From: a virus
Virus record (IMG/VR): IMGVR_UViG_3300046777_001575
Location: 1 to 64,000 of that record
Reading direction: 5' to 3' (one strand)
DNA length: 64,000 nt
How positions within the stretch are numbered: the stretch's first letter is position 1; each line of letters begins with the position of its first letter. The notes under the pieces were generated by a model. The model ran no database searches. It was not told the DNA's origin and was given only the letters and a program-made list of their open reading frames with translations. The translations under genes were made by a program, and so were the position numbers. Below, piece by piece: positions 17,671 to 59,361 of the stretch.

Positions 17671-18308
17671 TATACTTCTTCCAAAGTTACAGAGACATTC
17701 CAGTAGTCAAACTTTGTTCCTCTTTTTTCAACTGAGTAATTAAAATTACTAATAAACATTTCTATTAGTTGATTATACTGTCTAAGACGATCATACGGGT
17801 CTGGCTGACCATTAAAAACATCTTTTTTGTCATACGCAAGAAAAACCCAGAAAGAGTCTTTATGATTTTCATACCACTCAAGCATATCTGCTCCACCTGC
17901 GCCACCATCTGTTGTATATGATGTATGTGGCGATATGCCAGTTTCTGCATTAAATGCTGGAATATTAGAATGAGATCTAGACGGAATCATATTCCAACTG
18001 GTACTAAGTTTTAATTTATCTGCAATATGATAGGATCTCATTCTTCCATTAATCATTCTTTCACGCTTTTCAATACGTTCATCTGAAAACTCTAATGGTG
18101 ATCTGTTGTCATCTGTTAAAATTAAAAACTGATTAATTAGTGTGTCGTCTGGTTCACCAGTTGTATCTGCACCAACTTCTAACCCATATGGAACATATAA
18201 CTTATTAATTATGGTGCCTGAATTTTCAGACCAAAGCATACCACTAGGTCTACTATATCTTTTTCTTCCTTGGATATAAGAGTACCTTGGATCAATTTCG
18301 TCTGCCAC
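17670..18308 (-). CDS. Distal tail-like minor tail protein
   Basis: Immediately after the tape measure; [21 protein letters not shown]. Confidence 0.65.
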
Positions 18309-21300
18309 TTATACCAATCCCCCTAATTCTTCTGTCTTCTGTTTGTCTAATTGTTGACATTACTGCCTGTGCAATCTCGTTTGGATTAGCATCTGTCTTT
18401 GCATTAACAGTTAATGTATATGTATTATTATACACTGCTCCCCCTGGGTTTTTACCACTATTCATTGCTCTGAGAGTATCAACACCATGTGTATCGACTG
18501 CATACTTACTCATTATAAATTCTCCTGGAGTTAACATTGCTGGGATAGTATCTGTTCCTCTTGCAAAACCACCACTAGCAAAATATTTAGGAGGTACTAT
18601 TCCACCCATGCTAAAACCAAATCTACCAAACACGCTCTTTAAAGCATTAGTTACTGTTGCAACAGGTTTTGTAACTATATTTTTTACTGCTGATGCAACA
18701 TTGGATACCCCAGTTGCAACTGCCTTGGCTACTGTAGAAACAGTACTTGCAACTGTTTTTACTACCGCAGTTGCTGGCTTTGTAACTGCTGCTACAACCT
18801 TTGCAATTGGCTGATTTACACCTAAATTCCACCCAACAGAAGGAACGGATGTTGTTTTTGTTAATGGGCTTCCACCAAGTGGATTAAATGTAGGGGTTGT
18901 TGTTGCTGTAGGCTTAGGAGTAGGTACTGGATTTGGTGTTGGATTTGGTGTTGGATTTGGTGTAGGGGTAGGATCTGGTGTAGGATCTGGCTTTGGTGTA
19001 GGGGTAGGGTCTGGCTTTGGTGTAGGGGTAGGGTCTGGGGTCGGAGTAGGCTCTGGTGTTGGTTCTGGTGTAGGCTCTGGTGTAGGGGTAGGCTCTGGTG
19101 TACCAGATGTTGCTCCAGTGATTGCATCATTGCCACTTGACTGTTGATTATTATATGCCTGTATTAATTTGTCTTGAGTATTTAAAGCAAGTTGCATTGA
19201 CTCTATAAACTGCTTACTTCTTACCATAGCAAGATCTACCTGATTTTTAATTGCTTCCCAAGCATCTCTTGTTTTTCCAAGAACAGTTAAATTTTCAATA
19301 TCAGTTTTTAATTGAATTTGTTTTAAACGAATAAATTCTTGAGCAGGTTCTATCTTCTTTTCTTCTAAATCAAATATCTCATTTTGCAAATCTTTAATAT
19401 CAGACTCAAGTTCTTTCCTAGTTCTATATGTTTTTGTAACTGGGTCATAGGCTTTTACTGAGTTGAGTTCATACTGTCTAGATTGCTCTAATGCTTCTCT
19501 CTGCTTTGTTACAGCATCAGCAGCCTGCTGTGCTCTCATTTCTTGTGCAGCCCTTGCCGCTGCTGCTATATCTCCAGATGTTAGAGCCTCAGCAAGTGTT
19601 AGTTGGCCTCTTTGCTGATTAGCAATAGCAGCATTAGCCTTTTCAACATCGTCTAGTGCTTTGATTCTTTCATCATATTTTTCATTAATTTTTTGCTCTT
19701 GATCTTCAATAGCCTTTAAGGATGCTTCCTTATCATCAATTTTATATTGAATTCCAGCAATAGTATTTTGTGCTTCCTCAATTATTTTATTGCTTTCTTT
19801 AGTGTCTAAATTAAACTTTATTTGAAGTGCAGTTTCTTCAACATCAAAGGCCTCCATAGCGTTACTAAATCCTTGATCAAACATGTCTTGCATAAACCCA
19901 ATAGTGCTCTTTAGTTGATTTAGTCTTTCATTAAAATCACTCACCATCTTATTTAGTTCATTTTGTGCAGCAATAATTTGTGCTCTATCTGCACCCTTAC
20001 TTATTAAACTGTTTATTCTTGATTGTTGAGCAGCAATAGCATTTTCCATTGATCTTAAGTTTTCATCAGAGCCAATTGCAAAAGCAGTTTCTGAACTGTA
20101 TTGTTGTCTAATTCTATTTTCTTGAACTCTATCTTTCTTAAATTGAGCAATGTCTGTTTTTATTCCTGAAACTGCTGCAGCCTTTTCTTGTGCAATAGTT
20201 AATGCTTTATATTTTGCTATAAGTGATTTTAAGGTTTTATCGTTAACCCCATTTGCAATTGCTGCTGCAATTGTTTTATCAGAAATTAATTCGTATGCAT
20301 TGGCAACTGGCACTCCAAGTTTAGACAACTTATCGAATGCAATAGTTTGATTTGATAATGCTTTAGACTCTTCTTCCATGCTAGAATTAAAATCTCCCAT
20401 GGTGATTGAATACAAAGCCTCTTGAATATTTTTAGCATCTCTTTTTAGTGCAATAATATTTCCCTTGTTGTCAAACTTAAACAAAGAATTTTTTCTCTTT
20501 TCATATTCTTTTGGATCCATGCCAACAATTAGTTCAATAAGGTCCTGACTTCCACCTAGTGCTCGAATATCATTTTCTATACCACTAAATACATTTATTG
20601 TCTTGCTGCCTCCAAATAATTTATCCAATGCCTTACGAGAAGCAGACCAGCCTTCTGTAACTTTGATTTGATTCATTCTTACATCTCTAAGTTTCTTTAC
20701 AAGGTCGTCAAGTGGAGAAGCCTCAACCTTGCTTCCTCCACCAGTATTGCCACCTGTTGGAGCATTTGTATTAACTTGAACATTATCAACAACAGCCTTG
20801 TTTCCTTGAGCCTCTATATATTTTTGTACAATATAGGATTTGCTTCCAGTAATACCAGCACCACCTCTTGGGCCAGTTTCTTTACGCCAAGCCTTGAAAT
20901 CTTCGCTTTCAAGTATCTGTGGTTCTGGAACATTAATTAATGTAGAGATAGTAGTTGTATAAACTTTTTGCTGATCTTCAGTTAGAGTATTGAAATATGC
21001 TTCATCAAATGCTGCAGTTCCCTTAACCTGTGGCATAATTTCATAAACAATTTTTGCTGTTAAATCTTTGCTTCCTTCAATGCTGTCAAGCATTTTGTTT
21101 AGTCTGTCGTATGCTTCTTTATTCTTTGGATCTATGTAATAACTTACCATTACATCTGATGGTATAACAGCATTAAGATTATTTAACTTAATTATATTTT
21201 TTGTAAAATCAAGAGCATCTGAGTCTTTTTCAAATGCTTCTACCTTAGTAATAAATTTTGTTTGTACTGTTTTATTGATTTTATTGTCTGCACCAAGAAT

Positions 21301-24300
21301 ATTTTGTGCTGCAACACCAATTGACTCAGAAGTTGCACCACTAAACTTTGTAATAATATTCATCATCTTTGGAGCAATATCTTTATTGTCTGTTGCTAAC
21401 TGAAGAAGGCTTCTAAACACTGCTGGAGGTATATCGCCACTTGCCATCTTTGCCTGAATCAAGAACTCTTGTCCACTATCAATAGCACCAGACTTTCTCA
21501 AATCTCCTGCTTGCTGATTAACAACATCAAGATAAGCCAATTGATTTGGATCATTCTTATATTTTGCAGTAGTAGCCTTTTTCATTCCAGACATCATTGC
21601 TTCTTGAAGTCCTCCAGCACTATTGTACTGGCTAACAATGTCTCCTTGCAATGCTGCTTGGGCACCTGTTAGTTTATCTCTTTCTTTGATATACCTGGTT
21701 TGCATTTCATTGGCTTCATTAATTTTACCCTGCAACTTTAACTCTTCAATTTTCTTTTGATAATACATATCAAATGAATCAAGCATTTGCTTGTTTTGCT
21801 CCATAGCAATTTTTGCATCAACTGCATATGCTGCTCCTAAAGTCCCTGCTTGTTTTGTAAATTTCTTTGATGCAAAATAGCCTCCGATAGCACCTGCTGC
21901 TGCACCAATTCCTCCACCAATTATTGCTCCAACAACGTTTCCAACTACTGGAACAGCGGTACCAATTGCTCCACCAATTGCTGCGCCTGCTGCTGCTCCT
22001 CCAAGAGCAGAAGCACCTATTCCAACCTTTTGCATTGTTTTTTGTCCAGCAAGTTTGGTTATAGGATTTGCATTTTGAATATTTGAGATACTGCTCTTCA
22101 TATTCTTAGAATTTTCTTGAATCATTTTCATTCTAATTTCAAGCGGCTTATCTAAAAGGTTTTCTCCATTAGGTCCTAGAAGACTTTCTAGTTGAGCAAT
22201 AACCTTAAGACCAATTGACATGTCTCCTGCTTGTCTTGCAGCATTCATTGCTAAACTCTTTGCCTGACCTATATCCATAGCACCTGACATAATTGCAGAA
22301 GATAACTGACTGCTCAAATCTTTTACTGCAACATTTCCCTTGCCTGCAGCATTTTGTTCAGCAATTCTCTTTGTTAATGCTTTACCTTCTGCAGTCTGAG
22401 TAAATGCTTCTCCATACGTTGTCTTTCCTGTTGCTGGACCAAGCATTGAAAAAGAGTTTTTGCGTCTCAGGTCCATTTGTTCAGATGCTGTTACTTTACC
22501 ACTAAACTTTGCTATTTCATTAATTGCAGAAGTTGTTCCTTTAAACTTTTCGCTTTCTTCCAATACCTTTTTCTGTGCTCCGTCAAATGCCATTCTTAGC
22601 GCAACAAAGGATCCAACTGTTGCTGCAAGACCAATTGCTAGTGCTGCTGCTGGACTCTTTAGCATTGGCAAAATCATTGACAATCCCATTAAAGGCATCA
22701 TAACCTTTTGTGATATTTCTCCAACTTTGCCTGGGGCCATAGATCCAATCATTGCTGCTCCAGAAGCAATTCCTACTGCTCCCCCAAGACCCATCCCTGG
22801 TCGTTTACCTGCATCAATTCTTGCTTGTCTTTTTGCTGCTCTATTTTCAGCAAACTTAGTTAATCTTCCCATTGGCGTTCTTGCTTTTGCTTCTGCTGCT
22901 GCTCTTGCATCAATAATTGATTGCTGGTATGCAACCTTTGCAGCCAACTTACTTCTTTTTTCTTCTAATGCTGCTTGTTTTCTTCTTCCCCGCATAACTG
23001 GATCAATTGGTCCAGTAGTTCCATACATAGCAGTTTTGTTTGCATTAATTCTTGCTTGTGTTCTTGCTTCTGCTCTTTGTCTTTTTTCAATTTGGCGACG
23101 TAAAGATTTTGCATCAGCATCTATTGGTCCTGTTCCATACAACAATGTTCTTGATGCTGCTGCTGCTGATTGAGAAAGAGTTGTTCCGATTGTACTACCA
23201 ACAGATCTTGCTTCTGCAATAGATCCTCTTGCTCCATCTATTAATGCTGTTGCTACTGTGCTCCTTGCTTCTGGTGCATCGGATTTTCCACGCAAGACCA
23301 TAGGCTTTTGACGAATTTTTGGCTCTGTTGATGCTGGGGCTAGTCTTGTATCCTTTGTACTTCCAGTAGATGACTTAACTCCAGCAGGCTTACTTGTTGT
23401 CTTTGGTTTTTTTGTTTTTCCAGTTTTTGGATCTTCTACTACTTCGTCTGGTTTAATTAAAATAGATGTATGAAGTTTGTGTATTTTTTTCCAATCAACC
23501 TTTTTACCTTCTCTAAGTCTATCGACCATTGCTTGATAATATGGTCTTTCTTCTGGACTAAGGTCCATAGTTGCTAGTGTTTTTTCTAGTTTAGGTAAAA
23601 CTCTATCAATTTCAGCATTCATTGCATTGTGATATTCTTGAGCAGTCATCCCCTTTGCAATATCTGCTGTTGCGTTTCCAAACCAGAATGGAGATTTTCC
23701 TGCTGCAGGGCCCTTAACACCACTCAGGTTTATTTTTGCCATCTCTTCCATTGAAGGAAGATTTTTTACAAAGTCTCTCTTGCCAGATGCTCTATCAAAT
23801 ACTCCTGCTGCTCCAACATCTGCAATAACATTTCCACCTAAGTTTCCAGCCTTTAGGTCTTTGTCTATTCTAAGGTTTGCTGCTACAAGTTGTCTAAAAT
23901 ACTGTTCTTTTGTAAAGTTCTTGCCCATCTTTGAAGAATCAAACCTTGCATCATATGGAGACTCTAATACAATTATCTTTCTCTTACCGCTTGGGTCTGT
24001 AGGATCAATCATTGTCCTTACAGTTTGTTTTGGAGCATCTAGTCCATGAACATCACGAGCAATTTGAGTTGCTCTTTGTTCTGCAAGTGCTCCCTTTTCA
24101 TCAAGCATAGGCTTAACAAATACTCTTGATCCATCTGGCTTTTCATATAGTCCACCTAGGCCACTAACAGGGAAACTGAATCCAGTAGTTGGAGAGATCT
24201 GTTTTCCAAAGTCTGTTGGAGATAACTTGCCAGACTTGGTTTTTGCTGCCTCTTTTGCAATATCCTTTAGTATCTTTACATTCTTTGCTTGGCTTGGGTT

Positions 24301-27240
24301 TGCTGCTCTTTTTGCTGCTTCATCACTTCTGCGCTTAGATTCTTCATCTTGGCTTATTGATACACGATGACCAGAGCCAAGTCTGTTCATATTTACAACA
24401 GTTCCATCATTAAGTGTAACAGTTGAAGATCCAGTCTTAACAGCCCCACTCTTTTTGCTTACTCTTTCTTCAATAGTAAATGATTTGATAAGTCCCTTTT
24501 CAACTGCATTACTAAGAATCTTTCTGCTTTCTTCTGGAGTTGTTCCAAGACCTTTTCCAAGCAAGAACTTTGTAGATGTTTGATACAACTTTTGAGCATC
24601 CCTATATACAGTGCTTGAAGCAATCTCTGGACGTTCTGCTGGAATTCTCTTTGTAAAAATGTCACGAACTAAATTATCATTTACTCCTTTTATCTTCCCA
24701 TCTGCAAAATCTTGTTTAATTATTTCAATTATTGCACGATCCATTGCCTCAACACTTGCTGCTGGAAGTCTAGAAGGGCTCCACTTTCCTGGACCAAGTT
24801 TTTCCCACTCGGCTATAAATATTTTTGGATCTACACCTGCACTAGAAGTCATAGACTTATTTAAGTGCTCTGGGAAAGTAAATGCAAGTTTATGAAGTGT
24901 GGCTGTTGTTGCTGGAAGACCCTGTGATTTTAAAATTGCTTCAAGTGCTCTAAGTTTACCCTTTTGATCATCAGACAGAAACGCATTATCTCTTATGATG
25001 TCAGAAATAAGTTTTTGTTCACTCTTTCCACCAACGTGTGTGATATTTGTTTTTGTTGCTACATCTACTCCAGTGCTTCCCTCATTAAATCCCTGTACTT
25101 TTCTACCTGCAACCAATTGTGCAATCATTGGTCTGTTTGCTGGATCTTGTGCTGATTTTGCTGGAATAACTGCTTCTCCAGGTGTAAGCATTGTTGGAAC
25201 AGAGTCGGTATTACCGCTTCCTGGAACTTGCGTAGTTCCTGTAGAATACTTCTTTAGTCCTGGACCCTTACCTCCACCTTTAACTGGACCCGTGAAGCCT
25301 ATTTGTGCTGCAATTGCTCTCTTATATGCTGATGCAAGTGAGTTAACTGCTGCTGCCTCAGAAGTAAATGTTTGTTGAAGTCTTTGATGTACTTGGTCAA
25401 GGGATGCAGCAACTGCTGATGCTTCTAACTGCTCTTTAGTTAGATAAGATGTTTGTTCTCCTAAAATCTTGCTTGTATTTCCAGTTTTGTTATACATTGA
25501 CTTCATGCTTGCAAAAAGTTTAATAATGTTTGCAGCAGCGTTTGCTATCAAACCAAATGTCATAAGGAGAACTGGACCAATTCCAGCAACTGCAACAGTT
25601 AAAATAGTAATAAACTTCTTTGTTCCATCTCCAAGGTTGTTAAACTTATCAAGAACTTTGCCAACAAACTCAACTATAGGGGTAAGTGCTTTTAAGAATT
25701 GTTCTCCTACTGGAGCAAGAGAAGTTTTAAGATCTTCCATAGATTTCTTAAACTTATATGTTGTTGTATTTTGAATCTTATCTAATTCTCGCTGTGACAA
25801 GATAGCAAGTTCTTCTGTAGTTGCCCTTGTTAGACCTAATACTCTTTGCGCTTGTGTACCTTGCGCTGTTACGTTCTGAAATAATGTAGATAGTCTTGAG
25901 AACTGGAACTTACCAAACAACTGTTCAATAGCACGAGCACGATTAAGTGGATCTAAGGTATCTAGTGCCTGTGCAAAACCAACAACAGTAGCCTTTATGT
26001 CTCCCTTATTTGCTTCAACAATGCCACGAATATTAACACCAAGATTTCCAAGCATCTTTGCTGCTTTATCAGATGGATTAATTAATGATGCAAGACCAGA
26101 CTTTAGTGCGTTAGCACCTTCTGATGCGTTGATTCCACCTTCCTTCATTGCTGTAAGGAAGAATGCCAAATCTTCTACATCTCCACCAAGTTGCTTAACA
26201 ACTGGACCAGCCTTTGGAATTGCAACTGTTAAGTCTTCAATTGATACAACAGTTTGGTTTTCAACTGCGTTAAGAAAGTCAATTTTCTTTGCAAGATCTG
26301 CTGAGGCAACACCAAACGCATTTGTTACCGATATTGTTGTTTCCAATGCCTGTGTTTGTTCAACTCCACCAAGAACTGCAAGCCTTGTTGCCTGTGCAAC
26401 CTGTGCAGTTAGTTCTGCCCCCATCTTACCCATTGCTGCTGCATCTGCAGCCATCTTCATGGTGTCTTCAACTGCAACTCCATACTTGGTATATTCTTTA
26501 GCAAGAGTTTGAATCTGCTTTATCATTGCATCTGTTTCTTCTTGCGTTGTAAACATTTCTCCGTATACACGCTTGAATCTGATTGCTTGCTCTTCAAGTT
26601 GCATAAATGTCTTTGAAGCCTGTGCTCCAAGCATTGCCAATGGGACTGTGAAACCAACCATCAACTGACGGCCAGCCCACTGTGTATTCTTACCAAAATT
26701 TAGAAGATTTGTGGATCCTTGTTTTAATAGTTGATTAAGGAGTTGCTGTCTCTGTGCTGCGATTGCTGTTTGAGTGCCTAGATTCTTCATATCTAGGGTA
26801 AGAGGTCTTACAGCGATTGCCTCTAATGCACCATTTGCACCACGACCCAGTTTAATATACTGTGTCTGAATATCTTTTACACGCTCTCGTGCAACCTTGT
26901 TTATTGTTTCAAACTCAGACCTAAATAGTCTTCCAAAGGTTTTTGTGGCTGCTCCAGTGTATCTAAAATATTCTCTGGATGTTAACTTGTTACGTTCTAA
27001 CGCATCAGTAAAATGCTCTGTGCTTGTTGTTACTTGTCGCATAGATGCCTGGAATTGTCCAGTAGCATTTATTGCGTTCATCAAGTTTTTTGCTTGATTT
27101 GCTGATACTGCTGCTGCTGCAGTACCAGACTTTGCCATTTGTGTATGGAAGGCTGATATTTGACGTTGTAGAAGTTTTAGACTTGCTAAAGCATCCGACG
27201 TATCAATATTTACATTAATATTGGATTGAATATCAGCCAT
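18292..27240 (-). CDS. Tape measure protein (2982 aa) with internal kinase-like domain and Pro/Thr tract
   Basis: Very long Ala/Lys/Gln-rich helical ORF following the tail chaperones; tape-measure core near the N-terminus; Gly-rich hydrophobic segments. Confidence 0.93.
18900..19102 (-). repeat. Pro/Thr tandem tract ([14 protein letters not shown]) in tape measure
   Basis: Degenerate repeats such as ggtgtaggggta and ggtgttggattt on the + strand. Confidence 0.9.
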
Positions 27241-27258: not shown

Positions 27259-27585
27259 TTAGTTGTTTGCAAGATTGCCTAGCAAAGTTGCGTCAGAAAG
27301 TTTAATTCCTGATGCTTCTTCAACAATCTTGTATACAGTTGGAAGATCTAGATTTTCTTCTAAGGCTTCCTTGTCTTCCGCCAATTCTGGCTTGTACTGT
27401 TGCATTGCGATTTGTACACAGTCCATGAGCAAATCCATAGACTTTTCGTTATCTTCTGCGACCTTTGCAATATCTTCAAACTTCTTCATAAATGGACGAA
27501 GTAGAGAGATCTTTAGTGGTCGGACCTTGACTTTTGTACCGTCAATTAGTGTTACTGTCTTTTCTTCTGTTGTGGCGGTTGCCAT
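27259..27585 (-). CDS. Tail assembly chaperone (short, G-like)
   Basis: Directly upstream of the tape measure; AAGGAGG RBS; paralogous to the N-terminal half of 27644-28321. Confidence 0.75.
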   Translation of the reverse strand: MATATTEEKTVTLIDGTKVKVRPLKISLLRPFMKKFEDIAKVAEDNEKSMDLLMDCVQIAMQQYKPELAEDKEALEENLDLPTVYKIVEEASGIKLSDATLLGNLANN

Positions 27586-27643
27586 CTATTCCTCCTTATA
27601 AGGTTTAGTCAATTATACCATAGGACAGGCTTATTTTTTGTTA

Positions 27644-28321
27644 TTAATAACTTTCATAATCAAGACCCATTCCTATACCAAAACCAGCCTTTTCTGCATT
27701 TTTACCTTGTAGGGCAAGTATGTCATTTCCATCACTCACTGCACCCTTGCTAAAAACCCTGGCTTTCATATCTTCCCATGCATTGCTATTTCCAGAATTT
27801 TTATCTAAATCTACACCCTGCATAGCAGCAGAAAACTTTTTGTCAGAATAGTCTAGTTCTCTTTTAATTTGTAATGTAGCGGTCAACTCTTGCATTGATA
27901 AAGAAGACTCTAATTCTTCATAATCTTTCCATATACCAAGCAAAAAAACCTCGGACTCTAATTTAGCCAAATCCAATGTCTCCCAACTGGATCCACTTTC
28001 TACCGCTTGAGATTTTACTGTATCTTCTGACTTTTCATTAATTTTGATTCCTGCTGCTATATCAATAATTTCATATATTGTAGGCAAATCAAGATTATCT
28101 TCTAATTGCTCTATTGTTTTTATTGATGGATAGTATTGTTGCATTGTAACAAGAGCACATTCAGCCAATATAGCAATTGACTCATCATCTGTTTTTGCTT
28201 CTTTAATCTTTTCAAATGTTTCTAAAAACTCTCTAAGATATTTTATTTTTAAAGGAGCAGCAATAATTATGCTGTCATCTATTAAAGATATTTTTTTAGT
28301 ATCGTATATTTTAGTTGCCAT
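27644..28321 (-). CDS. Tail assembly chaperone (long, GT-like)
   Basis: Between major tail and tape measure; N-terminal ~100 aa align by eye with the short chaperone. Confidence 0.7.
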   Translation of the reverse strand: MATKIYDTKKISLIDDSIIIAAPLKIKYLREFLETFEKIKEAKTDDESIAILAECALVTMQQYYPSIKTIEQLEDNLDLPTIYEIIDIAAGIKINEKSEDTVKSQAVESGSSWETLDLAKLESEVFLLGIWKDYEELESSLSMQELTATLQIKRELDYSDKKFSAAMQGVDLDKNSGNSNAWEDMKARVFSKGAVSDGNDILALQGKNAEKAGFGIGMGLDYESY

Positions 28322-37286: not shown

Positions 37287-40200
37287 TTAAACTGGATCAA
37301 CAACTACTTGGCTCCAGTTTACGTCAGAATATCCAGTATATCTATAGTTTCCAAACCTTAAAACCCTGCTATCGTCTACTATAATCTTGTTTGTTCCTGT
37401 ATAACTCTTATAAACTTCTGCTGGGTTCACACCATAGTAACTTGTTTCTGATAAGACCAGAACCTTGTTCCAATTAAATGATCCGACATTCCAGAACTTC
37501 CAGTCCAAATCTGTCGCATTAAGCACCTTAACCCTAAACCAAGGCCTTTCAGAAACATTCTGAACCTCTTGCAAATTTGTTGACTGATAGAATGAAATAT
37601 TGTTAAATAGCAATGGGCCAGTTAGTCTTATTGCTCCTTCAAAATATGAAAAATCTAAAATATTTGCAAAACTAATGCCAATAAATCCCCAGTCTTGAAG
37701 TGTAATTACTGGTTCTTTTACTATCTTGCCGTTCCAGTAAAACCCTATGCCATCTTGTATTAATCCAGTCTTAGAATTAATTGCATAAATTTTTGCTCTT
37801 CGTCCGCTAGGATCGCAAGCAACAAGATAAAACTTTATATACGAATCACGACTTTCTATTTCAAAAATTTGTGTTGGTGCATATGGGAAATAGTCACCAT
37901 CAAACCTAACAGCAAGTTGCATTGCAATAACCTTAAAACCATCAGATCTACTACTATTAACTGGAATCATAAGACCTCTATTTATTAGTGGATCATATTT
38001 TCCTTTTAACTGAATACCACTTGTTTTTGTTAAATAAAGATATGGAGATGACGCATTATAAATTGAAAATGGATTATCCTTTTTAAAATTATAATATATG
38101 CCAGTTTTTGTATATGGGTATATTGGTGTTCCAAATCTAGTACCAATTGGGCTTGCATCTGATTCATTAAGTGCCTGAGAACAATAAGATAAATTTTTTA
38201 TATTTACATTATTTATTTCAGAATTTTTTACATTTATATCTATATGCGTTACTATTGACAAATCATTAAAATCAACTCCAGAGGGTGGATAGATGATCAT
38301 ATTGTCTACAACCTCATACTTTGTTGTCATCCAATCTGAACCTGGAATTAGTACACCGTCTCTTGATGGTCTTTCTATTTTTGTAAAATAAGAAGATGGC
38401 GCATTTGCCCCAAGTTCTGTATATTGAAAGGTTATGTATGTTTTTACAAGTGCCCCGTCAGTATCATATCTATAGTCTTTTGAAATTTTATTTTTTAAAT
38501 CTTCATAATCATTATATCCAGTAAACAAATAATTATCTAAAGATTCATAGGTTCTTTGTATTGGGGATCCATACTGATTAGCAAGATCTTCATATGTCCA
38601 AGCAACTGGACTAGTCTCTATTGCAATTGTTTTTGTTGGAATTGGATAATTAATATTAAATTGAATAAAATCAAGATCAAAATATTGATCGCCTCTTTGA
38701 TCAAGAACAGACTCTGCAAAATACGTTAATGGCAGATTATCTTCCCAATATGCGTTTGATGCAACAGCAAGTGTATACTTGTCAAACAAGATATCGGGAA
38801 TCAGGGTATAACTTGCAGTATGCTCAACTAAAAAGTCTTCCTCTAAAAGAATAACTCCTCCACCAGAAATTGCTCCTGGGGATGTATCTGTTGTCCCTCC
38901 GTAAGGTGGCAAAGATGTGGTATCAATTCCTGCATCAATATCTACTATTTCATTATTTTGATAGGCAAAGAATAAATCTTCGTTTAACTTTGGAACCCCA
39001 ACCTCATTAAATAAGTTTTTAATTTTTTGAAAATTATATTTAGTTGCAAATCCAACATTGTAAATTTTTCCATCAAATGTTGCAGTGTTTGTTTTATCTC
39101 CACCAACGTACATTCTTAAATCTGAATAGGACCCAAAAAAATCTGATACAGGATTTCCAAAAACTTCTACAAATCTAGGGATATTAATACCTGCCTCAAA
39201 GAACTCATTGTTGTTTAAAATTTCAGAAGAATATAAGATTTCTGATTGTCCATTTATGCTTATAATATATTTTAAAACATTATTTTCTACCTGTATCTTA
39301 AAATAATTAGAAGTATTTTCTTTTTCAATTTTAAAAAGTATTTGTGGGCCTATTACACTACCTTTTAATTGAAAACATCCATAAAATGCTGAAACTGGAG
39401 TTTTTAAAACATCAAAATTTTCAAAAAATAAATATCCAGATACGTTATTCCACAAAGTATTTGGCTTAAATGAAAAATATTCTCTATTATCATAAAAAAA
39501 GTTTGAAGCATCTTCTACTAAATTAGCAACCCTATTATCTTCAAACAATTCTAACTCTGTTTTAGAAGAAAGAAAAACTTTTGGAAGTGGATGAGATATT
39601 ACAGAAAGTGATCTATTTGATGTTGACATATTATCATTAAAACCCTGATTCCAGGAACCTATTTTAGGATAAGAATAATTTGCAGTATAATCTGCAAAAG
39701 AGTAGTCAATTGCAACTGACGTACCGCTATATGCTGTATTTATATTTTCTGGAACCTCAACACCCTGGCCAAACACATACCGTCTTTTTGCAACTTGGCT
39801 AGGAACCAAATATGGGTATATTCCAACACAGTCTACGTCTATTGGAGATACATCATCATAAGCATAAAAGCCAATCCAGTCTTGATCTTTGTTGTCGGTA
39901 TTTAGTTTTGATGGCAAGTTTGCAGAATCCTGTGAATATGGAATTGATATAACCTCTTCTCCATTAATTAAAAAGGATGCATTGTCTTTTCCAATCTTTA
40001 AATGAACAAGCATTGGCCTTGTCCACTCTCCAATATAGTTTGTTTTATACTCATTTCCAATTTTTAATCCTACAGAAGGGCCATCCACATAAACTCCATC
40101 TGTTGAACCAATAGGACCAATTATTCTTTTCCTAGTATTTGTGTAAGAGTTTATTCGAATCCATGTTTCAAGTGTATATTGTTTAAATTGTCCTAAAGAA

Positions 40201-41027
40201 TTTAACATTCCAGCACCAGGAATAATTAAAGAAGGTTTTCCATTATTTTCAAATAAAGTTGTGTGCCCAGAAGTTCCATAAATCAGTGGTATACCAGCAT
40301 TTTTTGCTTTTATCATGTTATCAGAAACAAGATAATAGGCATTTAATTCTTGAAGACCATAGCATTTAGCAATAATCCCTTTGTGTGGAGACAAAGCAAT
40401 TGTTGATGGAATATCTATAACGCTAGTTCCTAAAGAACTTGAAGCAAACTCTTCTGACCATTGGCCAAGAGTTATTCCGTTGACTCTAAATGCATGCTCT
40501 TCATTTTTATTTTCAACATATGTAATTTCAAATACTACCCTAATATTTGAGTCATCTGGTGGCGCATCAAAAGTTTCTGATATAAAAATCCATTTATTGT
40601 TTACAACTGTATCAAAATTTTTAAGATGGGTGACGGTTTGATCACTTGTCGTATCTACATATTCATACCCAATTGATAAACTTGTAATATAGGAACTTTC
40701 TGAATAAAAATAACCACCTACACAAAATGTTTTTAGGTATTTACTTAAATCTTGTATGTTAATTAACTCTTGGCTTTTTGCAGTAATTGTTGTTGTTCCA
40801 TCTAATGAACCAGTTGCAACAATTCTACCAACATAACTATCAATAAACGGTGTATCAGAAGTTTTGGTATATGCGCTTGCCAATCCACCATTTATTGACC
40901 AGTTAGAAAGATTTCTTTGTGACTCTGATATTAAAGAAATATAGTCTGCTCCATCATCAAGAGCCCATAGCCCAATAGGATGTTCTGCAAACACCTTTTC
41001 TGCATATAAGTTTGATAGAGTAGACAT
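37287..41027 (-). CDS. Large virion protein with LamG/ConA-like domains
   Basis: AEHPIGLWALD N-terminus; YTLETWIR...HLKI...FLINGEEV LamG-like pattern. Confidence 0.6.
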   Translation of the reverse strand: MSTLSNLYAEKVFAEHPIGLWALDDGADYISLISESQRNLSNWSINGGLASAYTKTSDTPFIDSYVGRIVATGSLDGTTTITAKSQELINIQDLSKYLKTFCVGGYFYSESSYITSLSIGYEYVDTTSDQTVTHLKNFDTVVNNKWIFISETFDAPPDDSNIRVVFEITYVENKNEEHAFRVNGITLGQWSEEFASSSLGTSVIDIPSTIALSPHKGIIAKCYGLQELNAYYLVSDNMIKAKNAGIPLIYGTSGHTTLFENNGKPSLIIPGAGMLNSLGQFKQYTLETWIRINSYTNTRKRIIGPIGSTDGVYVDGPSVGLKIGNEYKTNYIGEWTRPMLVHLKIGKDNASFLINGEEVISIPYSQDSANLPSKLNTDNKDQDWIGFYAYDDVSPIDVDCVGIYPYLVPSQVAKRRYVFGQGVEVPENINTAYSGTSVAIDYSFADYTANYSYPKIGSWNQGFNDNMSTSNRSLSVISHPLPKVFLSSKTELELFEDNRVANLVEDASNFFYDNREYFSFKPNTLWNNVSGYLFFENFDVLKTPVSAFYGCFQLKGSVIGPQILFKIEKENTSNYFKIQVENNVLKYIISINGQSEILYSSEILNNNEFFEAGINIPRFVEVFGNPVSDFFGSYSDLRMYVGGDKTNTATFDGKIYNVGFATKYNFQKIKNLFNEVGVPKLNEDLFFAYQNNEIVDIDAGIDTTSLPPYGGTTDTSPGAISGGGVILLEEDFLVEHTASYTLIPDILFDKYTLAVASNAYWEDNLPLTYFAESVLDQRGDQYFDLDFIQFNINYPIPTKTIAIETSPVAWTYEDLANQYGSPIQRTYESLDNYLFTGYNDYEDLKNKISKDYRYDTDGALVKTYITFQYTELGANAPSSYFTKIERPSRDGVLIPGSDWMTTKYEVVDNMIIYPPSGVDFNDLSIVTHIDINVKNSEINNVNIKNLSYCSQALNESDASPIGTRFGTPIYPYTKTGIYYNFKKDNPFSIYNASSPYLYLTKTSGIQLKGKYDPLINRGLMIPVNSSRSDGFKVIAMQLAVRFDGDYFPYAPTQIFEIESRDSYIKFYLVACDPSGRRAKIYAINSKTGLIQDGIGFYWNGKIVKEPVITLQDWGFIGISFANILDFSYFEGAIRLTGPLLFNNISFYQSTNLQEVQNVSERPWFRVKVLNATDLDWKFWNVGSFNWNKVLVLSETSYYGVNPAEVYKSYTGTNKIIVDDSRVLRFGNYRYTGYSDVNWSQVVVDPV

Positions 41028-45978: not shown

Positions 45979-47220
45979 TCAGTATCCATCATAGACCAAG
46001 AAATGGTCTGTGTAAAACATATCATATGGTTCACAGTTAATAGAGATAACCTCATGTGGAAGGTTTGAAAGGATGAACTCGGTTACTGGGGTCCATGTGT
46101 TAGTATCTGTTGACCATAGTTCGTCTGTTTCTAATACATCTGCAGCCATTATAATTCTGGCAACACCATCTCTTTTTATAAGCATACCGTGATTTGCTGA
46201 ATAAAACTCTCCGTTTAGAGATACGGCTTGCTCTGCTGTACGTGATCCTATATTTACAATTGTTGTTACCTTATCAGGAACCATCTGAAGATCGGATGGA
46301 TTACGGCTCCAATTAGCAACATCTTGTAGTGTAAAGTTAGATCCTAATCCAGGAATTTCTGTAGAAACAAGTTGATCCCCAACCTTAAGAGTTGATGCCT
46401 GTGTATATCCATTTGTAGTTAAAACTAGTGTATACATACTAACAGATTTACCTGCACCGAATGCTCCGAATGCTGAGAAAGCACCGAAAGCACCGAATGC
46501 TCCGAATGCTGAGAAAGCACCAAAGGCACCGAAGGCTCCGAATGCTGAGAAAGCACCAAAGGCTCCGAAGGCACCAAAGGCACCAAAGGCTCCGAAGGCA
46601 CCGAAGGCACCGAAGGCTCCGAAGGCACTAAATACTGTTGTAACTGATCCAGACTGACTAGAAGTTTGTGAATTACCATTTGCATTTGTAGCATATACAT
46701 TATATGTCTGTGCAGTACCTTGCTCTTGACCAACATCTACAGATGTTGAAGATGTATCTCCTGATTTTCCATCGTCAGAACTCCAACGATAATTAGTAAT
46801 AGCCTTACCACCATTTGCTGGGGCTGACCATGAAACGGTATCTACACCTGCTGAAGGAGATGATGCTGATGGAGCACTTGGCGTTGCTGGGACAGTTGTA
46901 ACTAACACAGAAGATGATACTGAAGAATATGGAGATTCTCCACTAGCATTGATGGCCTTAACTGTAAAGGTATAGTTTGTGTTAGATGACAGTCCTTCTA
47001 TACGAACTGGAGAAGAAGAACCTGTTGCAGTATGACCACCACTAGATAGCACTGTATATGATGTTGCTGCGTATACACCTGATGGGGTAAACGCTACATC
47101 TACTGCGCCATTGTCATATGCTCTATTTGTTCCAACATCTGTTACTGATGTTATTGTTGGTGTTCCTGGGGCCAAAAAGTCATTGGCTCCTTGACTCATT
47201 CTGCCTGCTTGCTTTGACAT
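45979..47220 (-). CDS. FN3-FN3-(F[G/S]A)20-Hint domain protein
   Basis: Two FN3 domains (GLSSNTNYTFTVKAINASG; VSWSAPANGG..ITNY...YNVYATNANG), a tripeptide tract, then a Hint domain: SVSMYTLVLTTNG...LKVGD, SANH, VISINCEPYDMFYTDHFLVYD. Confidence 0.8.
   Translation of the reverse strand: MSKQAGRMSQGANDFLAPGTPTITSVTDVGTNRAYDNGAVDVAFTPSGVYAATSYTVLSSGGHTATGSSSPVRIEGLSSNTNYTFTVKAINASGESPYSSVSSSVLVTTVPATPSAPSASSPSAGVDTVSWSAPANGGKAITNYRWSSDDGKSGDTSSTSVDVGQEQGTAQTYNVYATNANGNSQTSSQSGSVTTVFSAFGAFGAFGAFGAFGAFGAFGAFGAFSAFGAFGAFGAFSAFGAFGAFGAFSAFGAFGAGKSVSMYTLVLTTNGYTQASTLKVGDQLVSTEIPGLGSNFTLQDVANWSRNPSDLQMVPDKVTTIVNIGSRTAEQAVSLNGEFYSANHGMLIKRDGVARIIMAADVLETDELWSTDTNTWTPVTEFILSNLPHEVISINCEPYDMFYTDHFLVYDGY
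46453..46632 (-). repeat. 20 x F-(G/S)-A tripeptide repeat (9-bp units with synonymous variation)
   Basis: 180 nt of ttc/ttt-ggt/gga/agt/tca-gcc/gct/gca units on the minus strand. Confidence 0.95.
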
Positions 47221-53540: not shown

Positions 53541-53578
53541 ATAAATTACCCCCTAGAGAAATCTGGGGGGTTTATTTA
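53541..53578. terminator. Bidirectional terminator between convergent genes
   Basis: AAATTA-CCCCCTAGA-GAAA-TCTGGGGGG-TTTATTT. Confidence 0.8.
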
Positions 53579-54528
53579 TCTCTTCTTGGTGGCATTCCAT
53601 ATCCACGATTTTCTATAACAACATGAGAAGAATAGTTAGGAATAAAAGTTAAATATTTTTTAGAAAGTCCAGTAAGTTCACAAAACTGCTGGACTTTTTC
53701 TTTTGGTATATCTAGCATACCTGACATTAATAAGGACAGCCTATCTGTTGATTCTTGCACATGGCTCCAATAAACTTCTTTTCTATCATCTGCCCATGGA
53801 CGTAATGTTTCTCTTGTAACGGTTCCATTTGGCTGCTTATGAGACTCATGGTGAAAAACATCTCTAGTTCCTATTGAATATATTTCCCAATTTGCTGCAA
53901 AAGTTCTTAATGATAAACAGATTTCCTCGGTATTAAAAGATTCTTTTTTTGATATTCCAACCTCGTCAACCCATTTTTTGGGAGCAAAAAGATAACAACA
54001 GGTTGCCCAATATGACCTTACTATTTCATTATTTTTTAAAACACTATACCCTGGAAAACTAAAACCAGGAATAAACTCATTATAGTGGGAGGCATATTTT
54101 GAAAAAGTATCAACACCAAAATCAACTGAATTATCCGACATAAGTTCATAATTTGCTGGAGCATAAGCAATTATAATATTTTTACCTAAAGAGTTTATTT
54201 CTTTATATCTAGTACAAGCCAAATCATCCCATCCAAAAGACGCATAGGTATGAGAATCAAACTGTATAAAAAAATCATACTCCAGGTCAATCTGTATTGC
54301 TAAATTTCTAGCCCAACCAAGTCCACCTCTATATTTAGAAATATCATAATGCAAATACCTAATTTGATTTGAAGGTATAAAAGAAAAATCAAAAGTTTCA
54401 GAATCTTCAGAAACTAAAGAGAAAAACAATCTATCTTTATATTTGGCCTCCTGCCACAGTGATTTGATTGTTGTATAAAATTCTGGATCACAATAATTAA
54501 CAACACTAATTAATATTTTTTCGTTCAT
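53572..54528 (-). CDS. GT60-like glycosyltransferase (Skp1-hydroxyproline GlcNAc-transferase-like)
   Basis: ILISVVNYCDPE..TTIKSL...A....RLFF, RGGLGWARNLA, FFIQFDSH...GWD, EE..LSLRTFAANWEIY, FH match the Gnt1/PF11397-type pattern. Confidence 0.8.
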   Translation of the reverse strand: MNEKILISVVNYCDPEFYTTIKSLWQEAKYKDRLFFSLVSEDSETFDFSFIPSNQIRYLHYDISKYRGGLGWARNLAIQIDLEYDFFIQFDSHTYASFGWDDLACTRYKEINSLGKNIIIAYAPANYELMSDNSVDFGVDTFSKYASHYNEFIPGFSFPGYSVLKNNEIVRSYWATCCYLFAPKKWVDEVGISKKESFNTEEICLSLRTFAANWEIYSIGTRDVFHHESHKQPNGTVTRETLRPWADDRKEVYWSHVQESTDRLSLLMSGMLDIPKEKVQQFCELTGLSKKYLTFIPNYSSHVVIENRGYGMPPRRDK

Positions 54529-56328: not shown

Positions 56329-59300
56329 CTAGCACGAGGATAGGCTTCCAAGCGGATCACATGCTCCTGGATACATGCAGTATGGAGAAGGAAGGTTGGC
56401 GTAGTCAGACTGGCTACATGTACGATTTGAACTTGCTGGTGGAGTTGGGGTAGGAGCAGGTGGTGTTGGTGTAGGAGCATAATCTCCCTGACAAATATTT
56501 GGACATGATCCTGGAGTTATACACCATGTTCCATTGCCATAGGTTCCACATGCACCACCATAACTTACGCAAGTATTGCAGTCAGCAGTTGGTGTTGGAG
56601 CAGTTGGTGTTGGTGCAGTTGGTGTTGGAGAACAGTTTGTAGACTGGCAAGCAGGGAAGTCCCCAGTTGTGTATATACATTGACGTGAGTAGCCAGTACC
56701 AGAACCAGAATTATCATATCCTGGAGTTGTATATGAACAGTTTCCTGTTCCACCGCACTGATAACTTTCAGTACACTTCCACTGTGCAGTTACTGCAGTT
56801 GGTGTTGGAGCAGTTGGTGTTGGTGTTGTAGGAACACAACCATTAGTTTGATCTATATTTGGACAAGAACCTGGAGTTACACATGTTCTATAATATTCTG
56901 AACCAGAAGGGCATCCAGAATTTGGTCTTGTTGCATATGATCCATCAGCATATGGAGAATAAGTATTACATGTGTTACAGTCAACTGTTGGAGTTGGGGC
57001 AGTTGGAGTTGGGGCAGTTGGAGTTGGGGTAGATCCACACAAAGACTGAGCATTGGCCAATGCAGTTTGATAATTTGTGGTTACTCCTGATTCAGTACAT
57101 CCTGTTGCACTTTGATATTCTGCTCTAGCAGTATTGCTATTTGGACCATCAATTACTTCTGGGAGACCATTACAGCATCCATAAGCATAATAGAATGTTT
57201 GAGTTGGTGTTGGGGCAGTTGGGGTTGGGGCAGTTGGGGTTGGTGTTTGAGAATATTGATATACAGTTATTCCAGCATTAAGACCACAAATATCTGTTGT
57301 TCCTCCAGCAGGACTCTGAGAAGCAACAGTTCCATTATTTTGTTGAGTTGCACCAACTGTTGTATAATCTAAGTATTCAAATAACCATCCAGAAGCAACA
57401 ATTGCATTTCCTGCAGCAGATTCTGTCATTCCTACAACATTAGGTAATGTACAATTTGCAGGTGGTGTTGGGGTAGGAGCAGGTGGTGTTGGTGTTGGAG
57501 CAGGTGGTGTTGGGGTAGGTGTAGAAGAACATCCTGTTGGTGCAGGTCTTGCAGATACTATTGAGCAATCAATCTTTGTCGCTCCTATTCCACTAAGCAA
57601 GTTTGTGTATACTGAACAAGCCTCATTTATATTTGTTGTCAAAACATTGTTTGCATCAACTGTGTATGATTCTGAATATGGCTGACCGTCAAGGCAATAT
57701 GCAAGATAAACTGTTCCAGGGTTTACAACTGGAACTGATGGGCATCCGCCACCATATCCAAGAAGAGCAACTATTTGCTCACTAGTTAACGATGGATTTG
57801 TTGTTGTTCCAACAACTACAGTTGAACTTGCTGTCGCTGTTCCATATGCTCCACCTCGGCTACCAACGATTACTGGATCGCAATAAGTATAAATGTTATA
57901 TGTTCCTGGGGTTGGTGTTGGTGTTGGGGCTGGATCATTTATACAAGAAACACCCAAACTGGTATACAATGGAGAAGATGCTGTTCCCTGTACACATGTA
58001 AAGTTAGTTGCTCCATTTTGACTTAAACTATTTCCAATTCCAGTACATGCTTCATTTACTGATGTATATCCACCATAAGATATGTCCATACCAGAGTATC
58101 CGTTTATGTATCCACTGCTATCACAATATGCATAGGTTATGTAGATTGGTCCTGATGTTGGTGTTGGTGTTGGTGCTGGAGTTGGTGTTGGGGAAGCACC
58201 AGGAGTTGCAGCAAATGTTATTGATCCTGTAGAACTTTGATATCCAGCACGGGATGCAGTTATATATACTGTATAAGATTGGTTTGGTGTTAGACCGCTA
58301 ATATTAAATTCTTCTGGAAATTCTTGATTCTGTGTTCCTAAAGAAGAAGAATAAGAGTTACTATAGTCGTGATTGGTTATAGTAACATTTGCATAAACGG
58401 AACTAGGATAAACATTCCATCCTGTTGTATATGTAAGTGTTGGCGTTGGAAGCGTTGGCAATGTTGGTGTAGGTGTAGGGGCAGGTGGTGTAGGTGTAGG
58501 GGCAGGTGGTGTAGGTGTAGGGGCAGGTGGTGTAGGTGTAGGGGCAGGTGGTGTTGGTGTAGGGGCAGGTGGTGTAGGTGTAGGGGCAGGTGGTGTTGGT
58601 GTAGGAGCAGTTGGTGTAGGAGCAGTCGGTGTTGGTGTTGGGCTTACTATGTTAAGTAAATTTCCAAAAAAAAACCATGTATCTGAGCCTATCTTTGAAA
58701 GAGTTCCTTTTGAGTACTGACCATCCAAAGAACGAACATTTGATTTGCTATTAAGAAATACCGAAGAATCTTCTTCAGTAATTGTCGTAAGTGCTGTACC
58801 TATTTGAATTATGTCAACAGAATAACCTACAGGAATTTGTACTGAAGAATTTTTTGGAAGAGTTAGAGTGTTTGGAGTAGAAGTAGATAGAAGAATAGTT
58901 TTTCCAATATCTTCTGCAGAGAGTGTAAAACTTTCTGTTTTTGTTATTACTGTTCCAGTGTTTGCAAGTGCTGGATCCAAGTCAAATCTTAAATCTACAG
59001 AATTCCAATCAATACCATTTCCAGCAAGATCTGAGTATGCTGATGTTGCTCCATTAATACCATTAGTAACTGCTGTATCAACATATGCTTTTGTTGCTAG
59101 ATTTGCAGTGTTAGCAATACCATGAACATCTGTAGTCTTTGCGCTATGTGTTGCATCTGCATCTACAAGATTTTGAAGGTGTTTTGCAATAGATGGGTTT
59201 ACTAGGTTTGCAGGATTTACATTTGCGCCATCATAGGCATATGATCCATAGTGATAAAGCCGTAGGGCTGCCTGAATATCTGCAGCATCTGAAAGACCAG

Positions 59301-59361
59301 GCACTTTGGTAGGGAAAAGCCCAGTGCCATTGACGGTATTATCAATATTTTCTGCTGCCAC
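56329..59361 (-). CDS. Pro/Thr-rich, Cys-rich fibre-like virion protein with PASTA domain (1010 aa)
   Basis: Fibre anchor shared with 47244-48941; PTPTPPA linkers; FN3-like domain; PASTA (LPNVVGMTESAA...GTVASQSPAGG); many Cys modules. Confidence 0.8.
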   Translation of the reverse strand: MAAENIDNTVNGTGLFPTKVPGLSDAADIQAALRLYHYGSYAYDGANVNPANLVNPSIAKHLQNLVDADATHSAKTTDVHGIANTANLATKAYVDTAVTNGINGATSAYSDLAGNGIDWNSVDLRFDLDPALANTGTVITKTESFTLSAEDIGKTILLSTSTPNTLTLPKNSSVQIPVGYSVDIIQIGTALTTITEEDSSVFLNSKSNVRSLDGQYSKGTLSKIGSDTWFFFGNLLNIVSPTPTPTAPTPTAPTPTPPAPTPTPPAPTPTPPAPTPTPPAPTPTPPAPTPTPPAPTPTPTLPTLPTPTLTYTTGWNVYPSSVYANVTITNHDYSNSYSSSLGTQNQEFPEEFNISGLTPNQSYTVYITASRAGYQSSTGSITFAATPGASPTPTPAPTPTPTSGPIYITYAYCDSSGYINGYSGMDISYGGYTSVNEACTGIGNSLSQNGATNFTCVQGTASSPLYTSLGVSCINDPAPTPTPTPGTYNIYTYCDPVIVGSRGGAYGTATASSTVVVGTTTNPSLTSEQIVALLGYGGGCPSVPVVNPGTVYLAYCLDGQPYSESYTVDANNVLTTNINEACSVYTNLLSGIGATKIDCSIVSARPAPTGCSSTPTPTPPAPTPTPPAPTPTPPANCTLPNVVGMTESAAGNAIVASGWLFEYLDYTTVGATQQNNGTVASQSPAGGTTDICGLNAGITVYQYSQTPTPTAPTPTAPTPTQTFYYAYGCCNGLPEVIDGPNSNTARAEYQSATGCTESGVTTNYQTALANAQSLCGSTPTPTAPTPTAPTPTVDCNTCNTYSPYADGSYATRPNSGCPSGSEYYRTCVTPGSCPNIDQTNGCVPTTPTPTAPTPTAVTAQWKCTESYQCGGTGNCSYTTPGYDNSGSGTGYSRQCIYTTGDFPACQSTNCSPTPTAPTPTAPTPTADCNTCVSYGGACGTYGNGTWCITPGSCPNICQGDYAPTPTPPAPTPTPPASSNRTCSQSDYANLPSPYCMYPGACDPLGSLSSC
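58441..58642 (-). repeat. (PTPTPPA)n tract with 21-bp tandem units
   Basis: Tandem ggtgtaggtgtaggggcaggt units on the + strand. Confidence 0.95.

Follow-up and report, generated by a model that had tools for sequence, protein, structure and literature searches.

The tape measure gene and its protein

The stretch of DNA analysed here (the window) comprises the first 64 kb of the 78.5-kb IMG/VR virus record IMGVR_UViG_3300046777_001575, which is estimated to be 72% complete; the GC content of the window is 36.6%. It encodes a giant tape measure protein (TMP) of the phage tail, and the subject of this report is a module in the middle of that protein for which an atypical kinase fold is predicted. 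The gene and the features that lie within or beside it are as follows.

18292-27240, minus strand: TMP gene, 2,982 amino acids (aa), a single open frame with no stop
27259-28321, minus strand: two tail-assembly-chaperone-like genes immediately upstream of the TMP gene; both match phrog_10504, and two annotated chaperones hold the equivalent position in Streptomyces phage Coruscant
25510-25620, minus strand: hydrophobic, transmembrane-like segment, TMP aa 541-577, N-terminal of the kinase module (Kyte-Doolittle scan)
25165-25203, minus strand: first copy of the motif xPxMLTPGE, TMP aa 680-692, where the conserved N-terminal block ends (from the translation)
24346-25044, minus strand: separate conserved globular module before the kinase module, TMP aa ~733-965 (many invariant residues in the alignment; model pLDDT 77)
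23446-24216, minus strand: predicted atypical kinase-fold module, TMP aa ~1009-1265 (AlphaFold model; boundaries from relatives that share only this part)
22585-22683, minus strand: hydrophobic segment, TMP aa 1520-1552, C-terminal of the kinase module (Kyte-Doolittle scan)
21880-22020, minus strand: Gly-zipper hydrophobic segment, TMP aa 1741-1787 (Kyte-Doolittle scan; weak Pfam match to Gly-zipper_Omp, E 0.0011)
18511-18549, minus strand: second copy of xPxMLTPGE, TMP aa 2898-2910, near the C-terminus (from the translation)

The N-terminal 675 residues match the Pfam profile PF10145 at 1.6e-24, and the N-terminal part also matches TIGR01760 of NCBIfam (6e-31) and phrog_10030 of PHROGs (1.8e-100). 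The gene lies downstream of genes for the portal, a protease, the major head protein, an Ig-domain protein and the two chaperone-like proteins, and upstream of those for minor tail proteins. This is the order found in Coruscant, where the major tail protein, two chaperones, the TMP and minor tail proteins follow one another; the Ig-domain protein occupies the position of Coruscant's major tail protein, and the Coruscant TMP has 2,133 residues as against 2,982 here. Core profiles and gene order thus confirm, at the level of sequence, that the product of 18292-27240 is a phage TMP. Residues 8-622 span almost the whole of phrog_4704, a TMP family of 625 positions, so that the giant protein resembles an ordinary TMP extended by ~2,280 residues. 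The duplicated motif has a longer form, xPxMLTPGExxI, and a related motif, VGExGPELFVP, stands directly after the kinase module in other members of the family described below.

The kinase module sits at 34-42% of the length of the protein, between the hydrophobic segments at aa 541-577 and aa 1520-1552. The original prediction had placed a kinase-like domain inside the TMP at 23470-24200, which corresponds to residues ~1014-1257; such a module is indeed found there, at aa ~1009-1265 of one open 2,982-aa frame.

The reading frame is real, as shown by the continuity of independent assemblies and by variation that is mostly synonymous. A TMP that is 99% identical and has a matching architecture is present on a different IMG/VR contig, and contigs from four public runs tile positions 22600-25100 with no indels or joints. 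Among the listed strain differences, 34 of 40 are synonymous, and the sole non-synonymous one inside the kinase module is S1228T. As a side observation, the linker at 22642-23095 (minus strand; TMP aa 1382-1533) holds 23 strain differences in ~450 bases, mostly synonymous, while the kinase module holds 5 in ~730 bases, making it ~7 times sparser than this basic linker after the kinase; the contrast is approximate and counts the best-supported differences only. A 978-base stretch was found at 62-100% of sampled words in 20 public runs from 13 studies, with labels of freshwater, aquatic, riverine, plankton and, in one case, soil metagenome. Two of the 20 runs are metatranscriptome libraries, in which the stretch is present in contigs, and this is no proof of transcription.

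Predicted fold of the module

Residues 995-1274 of the TMP were modelled with AlphaFold2 from a 22-row alignment (A1) that is low in diversity (effective number of sequences, Neff, 1.8). The model has a mean predicted local distance difference test score (pLDDT) of 84.9 and a predicted template modelling score (pTM) of 0.84. Solved structures resembling it were sought in three ways: by Foldseek against the PDB, by a structure search independent of Foldseek, and by realignment of the Foldseek matches. With Foldseek, the top rows are all kinase-like (WNK3, CtkA, PI4KII-alpha and HipA; E 3e-4 to 1e-2), and the six matches at E <= 0.001 are WNK3, CtkA and p38. Kinase-like folds fill 50 of 50 rows in the independent search and again 50 of 50 rows after realignment.

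In these structure comparisons 67 chains reach Z >= 8. The best neighbour is CotH (PDB 5jda), with a top Z of 12.0 and a root-mean-square deviation of 4.0-4.1 over 218-219 aligned residues. CtkA (Z 9.4-10.3) and HipA (Z 8.7-9.5) score highly in two comparisons; the independent search gives PI4KII-alpha and MavQ at Z 10.0, Fam20C at Z 9.3 and HipT at Z 8.8, and realignment adds the N-terminal kinase of LepB at Z 9.5. The comparison tool has a stated background of Z 7-8, which is exceeded by CotH at Z 12 with 219 of ~260 residues aligned. The uniformity of the neighbour list is nevertheless the stronger argument for a kinase fold. We conclude that the module very probably adopts a two-lobed protein-kinase-like (PKL) fold, with an N-lobe sheet and helix C followed by a helical C-lobe. 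The expectation of a kinase-like fold is therefore borne out by a model of good confidence, whose solved-structure neighbours are all kinase-like.

Searches by sequence give a different picture. Nothing meaningful was found for the module in Pfam, PHROGs, NCBIfam or the PDB sequences, whether the query was the single sequence, the 22-member profile or each member alone. No Hanks-type kinase family (PF00069/PF07714) matches the TMP, the domain or the 22 family members at E <= 1, and in Pfam neither PF00454 (PI3K/PI4K) nor PF18640 (LepB_N) matches at that threshold. The CotH profile PF08757 matches nothing in the 78-kb record at E <= 10, under conditions in which control genomes did match, and nothing in the 22 family members at E <= 1. 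When HipA of E. coli K-12 was compared with A1 by hhalign, the probability was 0.6% and an unrelated stretch was aligned; the Neff of 1.8 leaves a very distant relation possible. In a protein atlas, clusters of LepB_N and PI3_PI4_kinase are among the nearest named ones, and we treat them as leads only. Hence, as judged by sequence, the module is a family of its own, outside CotH, CtkA, PI4KII, MavQ, HipA and LepB. The label "HipA/PI3-4K-type" that had been attached to the domain is accordingly close with respect to fold, where CotH comes first and is followed by CtkA, PI4KII, MavQ, HipA and LepB, but it does not hold as a statement of sequence membership.

Candidate active-site residues

The five motifs on which the original prediction was built are all present exactly in the translation. 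They are listed here with their place on the secondary structure of the model.

24145-24165, minus strand: Gly-rich loop SGLGGLY, aa 1026-1032, before and in model strand 36-39
24109-24123, minus strand: VFVKP, aa 1040-1044, with the candidate ATP-binding lysine K1043, model strand 45-50
24070-24090, minus strand: ALAEQRA, aa 1051-1057, with the candidate helix-C glutamate E1054, model helix 54-69
23842-23865, minus strand: catalytic-loop-like DKDLKAGN, aa 1126-1133 (D1126, D1128, N1133), directly after model helix 117-130
23812-23820, minus strand: DFG-like DVG, aa 1141-1143 (D1141, G1143), after two short model strands

Conservation was assessed in 130 representatives that cover the domain, one per 50%-identity cluster, which are 30-66% identical to the domain of the window. 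The catalytic residues that had been proposed are conserved: K1043, E1054, N1133 and D1141 are invariant across all 130 representatives, and D1128 is present in 129. Around them, G1030 is kept in all 130, G1143 in 127, Y1032 in 126 and D1126 in 124. The lysine of "DLK" (K1130) is variable across the representatives, which places the loop with the D-x4-N type of atypical kinases and not with the Hanks HRDLKxxN type.

On the secondary structure of the model the motifs follow the canonical kinase order of Gly-rich loop, lysine, helix-C glutamate, D-x4-N and DxG. Given this order and their near-invariance, the motif set exceeds what chance would produce. Retention of the full phosphotransfer set, namely the Gly-rich loop, K1043, E1054, D1128 with N1133, and the putative metal-binding D1141, is well supported by alignment and model. 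Because this set is retained, the module is probably an active phosphotransferase, and most likely an ATP-dependent kinase.

A family specific to tape measure proteins

An exhaustive HMMER search over 1.84 billion cluster representatives returned 166 clusters with the kinase module at E <= 1e-3, of which 140 are at <= 1e-30. Nearly all members are proteins of 2,000-4,400 residues. The position of the domain varies among them; it lies near residue 370, 500, 730-770 or 1000-1390, and once each near 2,200 and 2,850. A free-standing form was not found by profile search among proteins of 130-844 residues, where the short matches are fragments on short contigs. The domain occurs in none of 50,697 GenBank phage records at a tblastn E <= 1e-3, and megablast of the structural module gave no match either. 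Within the sensitivity of these sequence searches, the kinase-fold family is specific to tape measures and is so far known from metagenomes only.

An optional cassette in the middle of the protein

For the N-terminal 600 residues of the TMP, IMG/VR contains at least 598 relatives. The best 80 of these, 67-100% identical, were surveyed by scanning each TMP frame with a hidden Markov model of the domain, which left 72 TMPs of judgeable state, that of the window included. The module is present in 42 of these 72 close TMPs and missing from 30. Kinase-bearing proteins are mostly 2,900-3,670 aa long, as compared with 2,340-2,885 aa for those that lack the module. On a tree of the N-terminal block, one clade of 36 TMPs (support 96) has the module throughout, while its sister clade of five is without it, and presence is explained by 3 changes as against ~23 with shuffled labels. 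Since no more than three gains or losses are needed to account for 42 proteins with and 30 without the module, it is a heritable but optional cassette, mosaic in its occurrence, in the variable middle of giant TMPs encoded by a large group of freshwater siphoviruses not yet cultured.

Pairwise comparison of TMPs locates this slot. The proteins are collinear up to residue ~725-845, then enter the variable slot, and similarity resumes at ~1,335-1,405. Some kinase-bearing relatives match the window protein only at residues ~1009-1290 and differ in the sequence that precedes them; the kinase module is thus a recombination unit of its own. The suggestion that relatives might fill this slot with other toxin domains found no support, as kinase-less relatives carry instead a shorter, unrelated sequence that is mostly helical, like an ordinary TMP. 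Neither eight such alternative slot sequences nor the flanks of the slot in the window's own TMP have a Pfam match.

The conserved globular module that precedes the kinase module is common to only some of the kinase-bearing relatives. Its invariant motifs are THxGGKS, SQG, W..G..KW, GxGLG and NMNRxGxG, and it has no clear structural match in the PDB, the best being Z 5.5 over 52 residues. A nucleotidyltransferase fold was considered and set aside, as the rows pointing to it (TglT, MenT1, OAS1 and URT1; Z 3.4-3.6) are too weak to name the module.

The phage and its probable host

The portal protein is 47% identical to portals of Streptomyces phages of the Stanwilliamsviridae, and the N-terminus of the TMP is ~31% identical to TMPs of Streptomyces phages of the same family. 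By these sequence relations, the phage, an uncultured freshwater siphovirus, is related to the Stanwilliamsviridae of Streptomyces. Other genes of the window include the following.

56329-59361, minus strand: tail-fibre-like protein of 1,010 aa with a PASTA domain at aa 638-689 (24.9 bits against a curated cut-off of 23.2)
53572-54528, minus strand: GlcNAc-type glycosyltransferase
60428-61159, minus strand: collagen-repeat protein
45979-47220, minus strand: fn3-domain protein

The peptidoglycan-binding PASTA module is typical of Gram-positive bacteria, and its presence is a hint that the host is of this kind, with its peptidoglycan exposed. Among 185,579 species genomes there are only two matches, both in metagenome-assembled genomes, labelled Bifidobacterium and Acidimicrobiaceae. 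Because of their low GC content (37-41%), both contigs are probably phage contigs that were binned with these genomes, and they are weak evidence of the host. In the search for host clues no tRNA gene was found, nor was a WhiB gene found in the 72%-complete record. The host is probably a Gram-positive actinobacterium.

The window also holds replication genes (DNA polymerase, DnaB-like helicase, primase, RecA and ribonucleotide reductase). A 1,246-aa open reading frame at 37287-41027 (minus strand) stands a short way upstream of the portal gene, from which it is separated by a 128-aa frame, and has no Pfam or PHROG match.

Relation to known systems

TMPs are usually viewed as rulers and pore formers, sometimes with cell-wall hydrolases, and the sole TMP-borne cytoplasmic enzyme proven so far is, to our knowledge, the RNA polymerase of Thermus phage P23-45. 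TMPs of siphoviruses are metastable in the tail tube and are expelled into the envelope at infection, and that of P23-45 carries a working virion RNA polymerase, which transcribes pre-early genes (PMC10770324). The TMP of lambda is labelled by a biotin ligase on the cytoplasmic side during injection (PMC13190303). The window protein would resemble that of P23-45 in that an enzyme requiring the cytoplasm is encoded in a giant TMP; the P23-45 enzyme is present in virions and acts at the start of infection. The two differ in that the RNA polymerase lies at the N-terminus and its activity has been demonstrated, whereas here a predicted kinase fold lies at 34-42% of the length with hydrophobic segments flanking it. 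Hydrolase domains of TMPs, such as the lytic transglycosylases of enterococcal TMPs (PMC10194240), are likewise optional enzyme modules embedded in the protein and used at entry. However, they act on peptidoglycan outside the membrane without ATP, whereas a kinase fold implies a site in the cytoplasm or at the face of the membrane.

A second precedent is provided by the polyvalent proteins of phages and plasmids, which are delivered with the virion and for which Iyer et al. 2017 predicted kinases, ADP-ribosyltransferases and nucleotidyltransferases; tape measures are unmentioned there (PMC5512222). The idea of a protein-modifying enzyme that is part of a large virion protein and is delivered with the DNA is common to both cases. 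The kinases of that group are described as having lost the C-terminal subdomain; a Gln is conserved in their last N-lobe strand, and they have a His...Asp pair accompanied by an insert (PMC5512222). In the module of the window, the model has helices 170-264 after DxG, the loop reads R-x-D-K-D without His, and strand 94-101 shows no conserved Gln. Among the nearest predicted viral structures in BFVD (E 1e-5 to 1e-4) are large proteins named ADP-ribosyltransferase, portal or head-morphogenesis protein, some of them from phages of Mycobacterium and Gordonia, in which kinase-fold domains are predicted in fusion with MuF, ART or portal parts. The entries with a predicted kinase fold are mostly large (490-1,479 aa) and extend to haloarchaeal tailed viruses, and some are named PI3K/PI4K-domain proteins (BFVD entries A0A6B9L6W7, A0A6J5PWC9, A0A6J5S481, A0A6J5MJB0, A0A6J5N2Y3, R4T6E8, L7TJZ0, A0A4D6E245 and A0A5Q2F0H9).

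Among cellular proteins, CotH (PDB 5jd9/5jda; PF08757) is an atypical kinase of the Bacillus spore coat that phosphorylates structural coat proteins (PMC7821199). It is the best fold match to the module and, like it, an atypical kinase fold built into a large protein assembly; yet the structural alignment shows 9-10% identity, the two are unrelated by sequence, and CotH is a free-standing cellular protein. PI4KII-alpha/beta, the N-terminal lipid kinases MavQ and LepB of Legionella, H. pylori CtkA and HipA/HipT share the atypical kinase fold (Z 8.7-10.3 over ~185-215 residues) and the combination of D-x4-N with DxG, and several of them are delivered effectors or toxins. The module has no Pfam match to their families, and none of that group lies inside a phage structural protein. 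TMP enzymes (hydrolases and one RNA polymerase) and predicted virion-delivered kinases were thus already known, and the new element is a kinase-fold family specific to tape measures; we found no such family in the literature searched, and nothing direct on a TMP kinase.

Possible roles of the module

Being part of the TMP, the module would be built into the virion and would leave the tail at infection. It may be stored unfolded or extended inside the tail tube and refold on the cytoplasmic side of the membrane, close to the hydrophobic segments of the TMP, where it could phosphorylate a host target with host ATP before any phage gene is expressed. The tape measure context, the predicted fold, the conservation, the cassette behaviour and the wide occurrence are results of the analysis, whereas catalysis, delivery to a compartment that holds ATP, and the substrate are inferred. 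The original prediction had gone on to propose an injected effector that acts on host proteins or lipids, for anti-defence or takeover; its structural part is supported, and this functional part is a possible reading. Taken as a whole, the proposal that an active kinase borne by the TMP is delivered into the host and acts there seems to us evenly balanced, and that the module acts in the newly infected cell is put forward tentatively, at slightly short of an even chance. Several points weigh against this proposal. The catalytic residues are assigned by motif order, model secondary structure and conservation. A folded module of ~28 kDa, in at least three TMP copies, should not fit the lumen of a siphovirus tail tube, and would therefore have to be stored in a non-native form and refold later. 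From its position between hydrophobic segments, the module could end up on either side of the membrane after ejection, and there is no ATP outside the cytoplasm. The host, too, is only a probable one. Finally, thirty close relatives do without the module, so it is dispensable for tail assembly and DNA entry.

The last point bears equally on a different reading, in which the kinase works late in the producing cell, before or during tail assembly, on the TMP, its chaperones or other virion proteins, and is not an injected effector. The full-length TMP is in an ATP-rich cytoplasm before assembly, and CotH, the nearest match by fold (Z 12.0), acts as a kinase on structural proteins while itself being a component of the structure (PMC7821199). 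In the subclade of the window, Lys, Ser and Thr are abundant in the linker that follows the kinase; however, the notion that it is a built-in substrate fails across the family, as the median Ser/Thr content after the module is 0.113 versus 0.131 for whole proteins, with no general enrichment. Since 30 close relatives build tails without the module, and since placing an enzyme inside an ejected protein is better explained by delivery, we regard action in the producing cell as unlikely, if still deserving of attention. Less likely again is a kinase of lipids or small molecules, comparable to PI4KII, MavQ or LepB, which the TMP would deliver and which would alter a membrane lipid where entry takes place (for example actinobacterial phosphatidylinositol), thereby aiding pore formation or DNA entry. 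The Z scores of PI4KII-alpha/-beta, MavQ and LepB (9.5-10.2) come within 2 units of that of CotH, the LepB_N and PI3_PI4_kinase clusters of the atlas offer leads, the module lies between membrane-type segments, and the hints as to the host point toward actinobacteria. On the other hand, neither PF00454 nor PF18640 matches at E <= 1, the top neighbour CotH together with CtkA, HipA and Fam20C are protein kinases, a substrate cannot be told from similarity of fold, and an argument from host lipids depends on a host that is only probable. Kinase folds with other chemistries are known, such as AMPylation by SelO and glutamylation by SidJ, and the module might not be a phosphotransferase at all; it could carry out such a reaction or serve as a nucleotide-binding structural scaffold in the TMP. 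SidJ does appear far down the Foldseek list, and no sequence model of a proven kinase matches. Nevertheless, pseudokinases usually lose part of the canonical phosphotransfer set, whereas here the whole set is invariant, the catalytic Asp and its Asn included, and the high-scoring neighbours are all true kinases. We consider this the least likely of the alternatives.

Within the proposal of delivery into the host, a more specific version can be formulated. The kinase could be brought to the cytoplasmic mouth of the pore through which the DNA enters, and phosphorylate a membrane component within seconds of adsorption, thereby opening the route or disarming defences that act at the injection stage. 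Its target there might be a protein of the host with a part in guarding or forming the route of entry; a lipid, such as actinobacterial phosphatidylinositol, is the other candidate. This version is speculative and, as it stands, improbable.

Significance

The module is carried by the majority of a phage group that turns up repeatedly in freshwater metagenomes across the world. If it is inactive or serves in assembly only, the finding is that of a new atypical kinase family in an unusual location. As a domain of ~260 residues with three obvious activity-killing residues, it is also a concrete object for experiment. Its role bears on the first seconds of siphovirus infection and on the final location of the TMP. 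Should action at the entry pore prove true, it would be the first demonstration of a signalling-type enzyme acting from a TMP, and would reveal a new layer of phage-host conflict in phages that are among the most abundant in fresh water. Taken together, a conserved kinase-fold module with an apparently intact active site in 166 clusters suggests that TMPs may be a general vehicle for pre-made effector enzymes.

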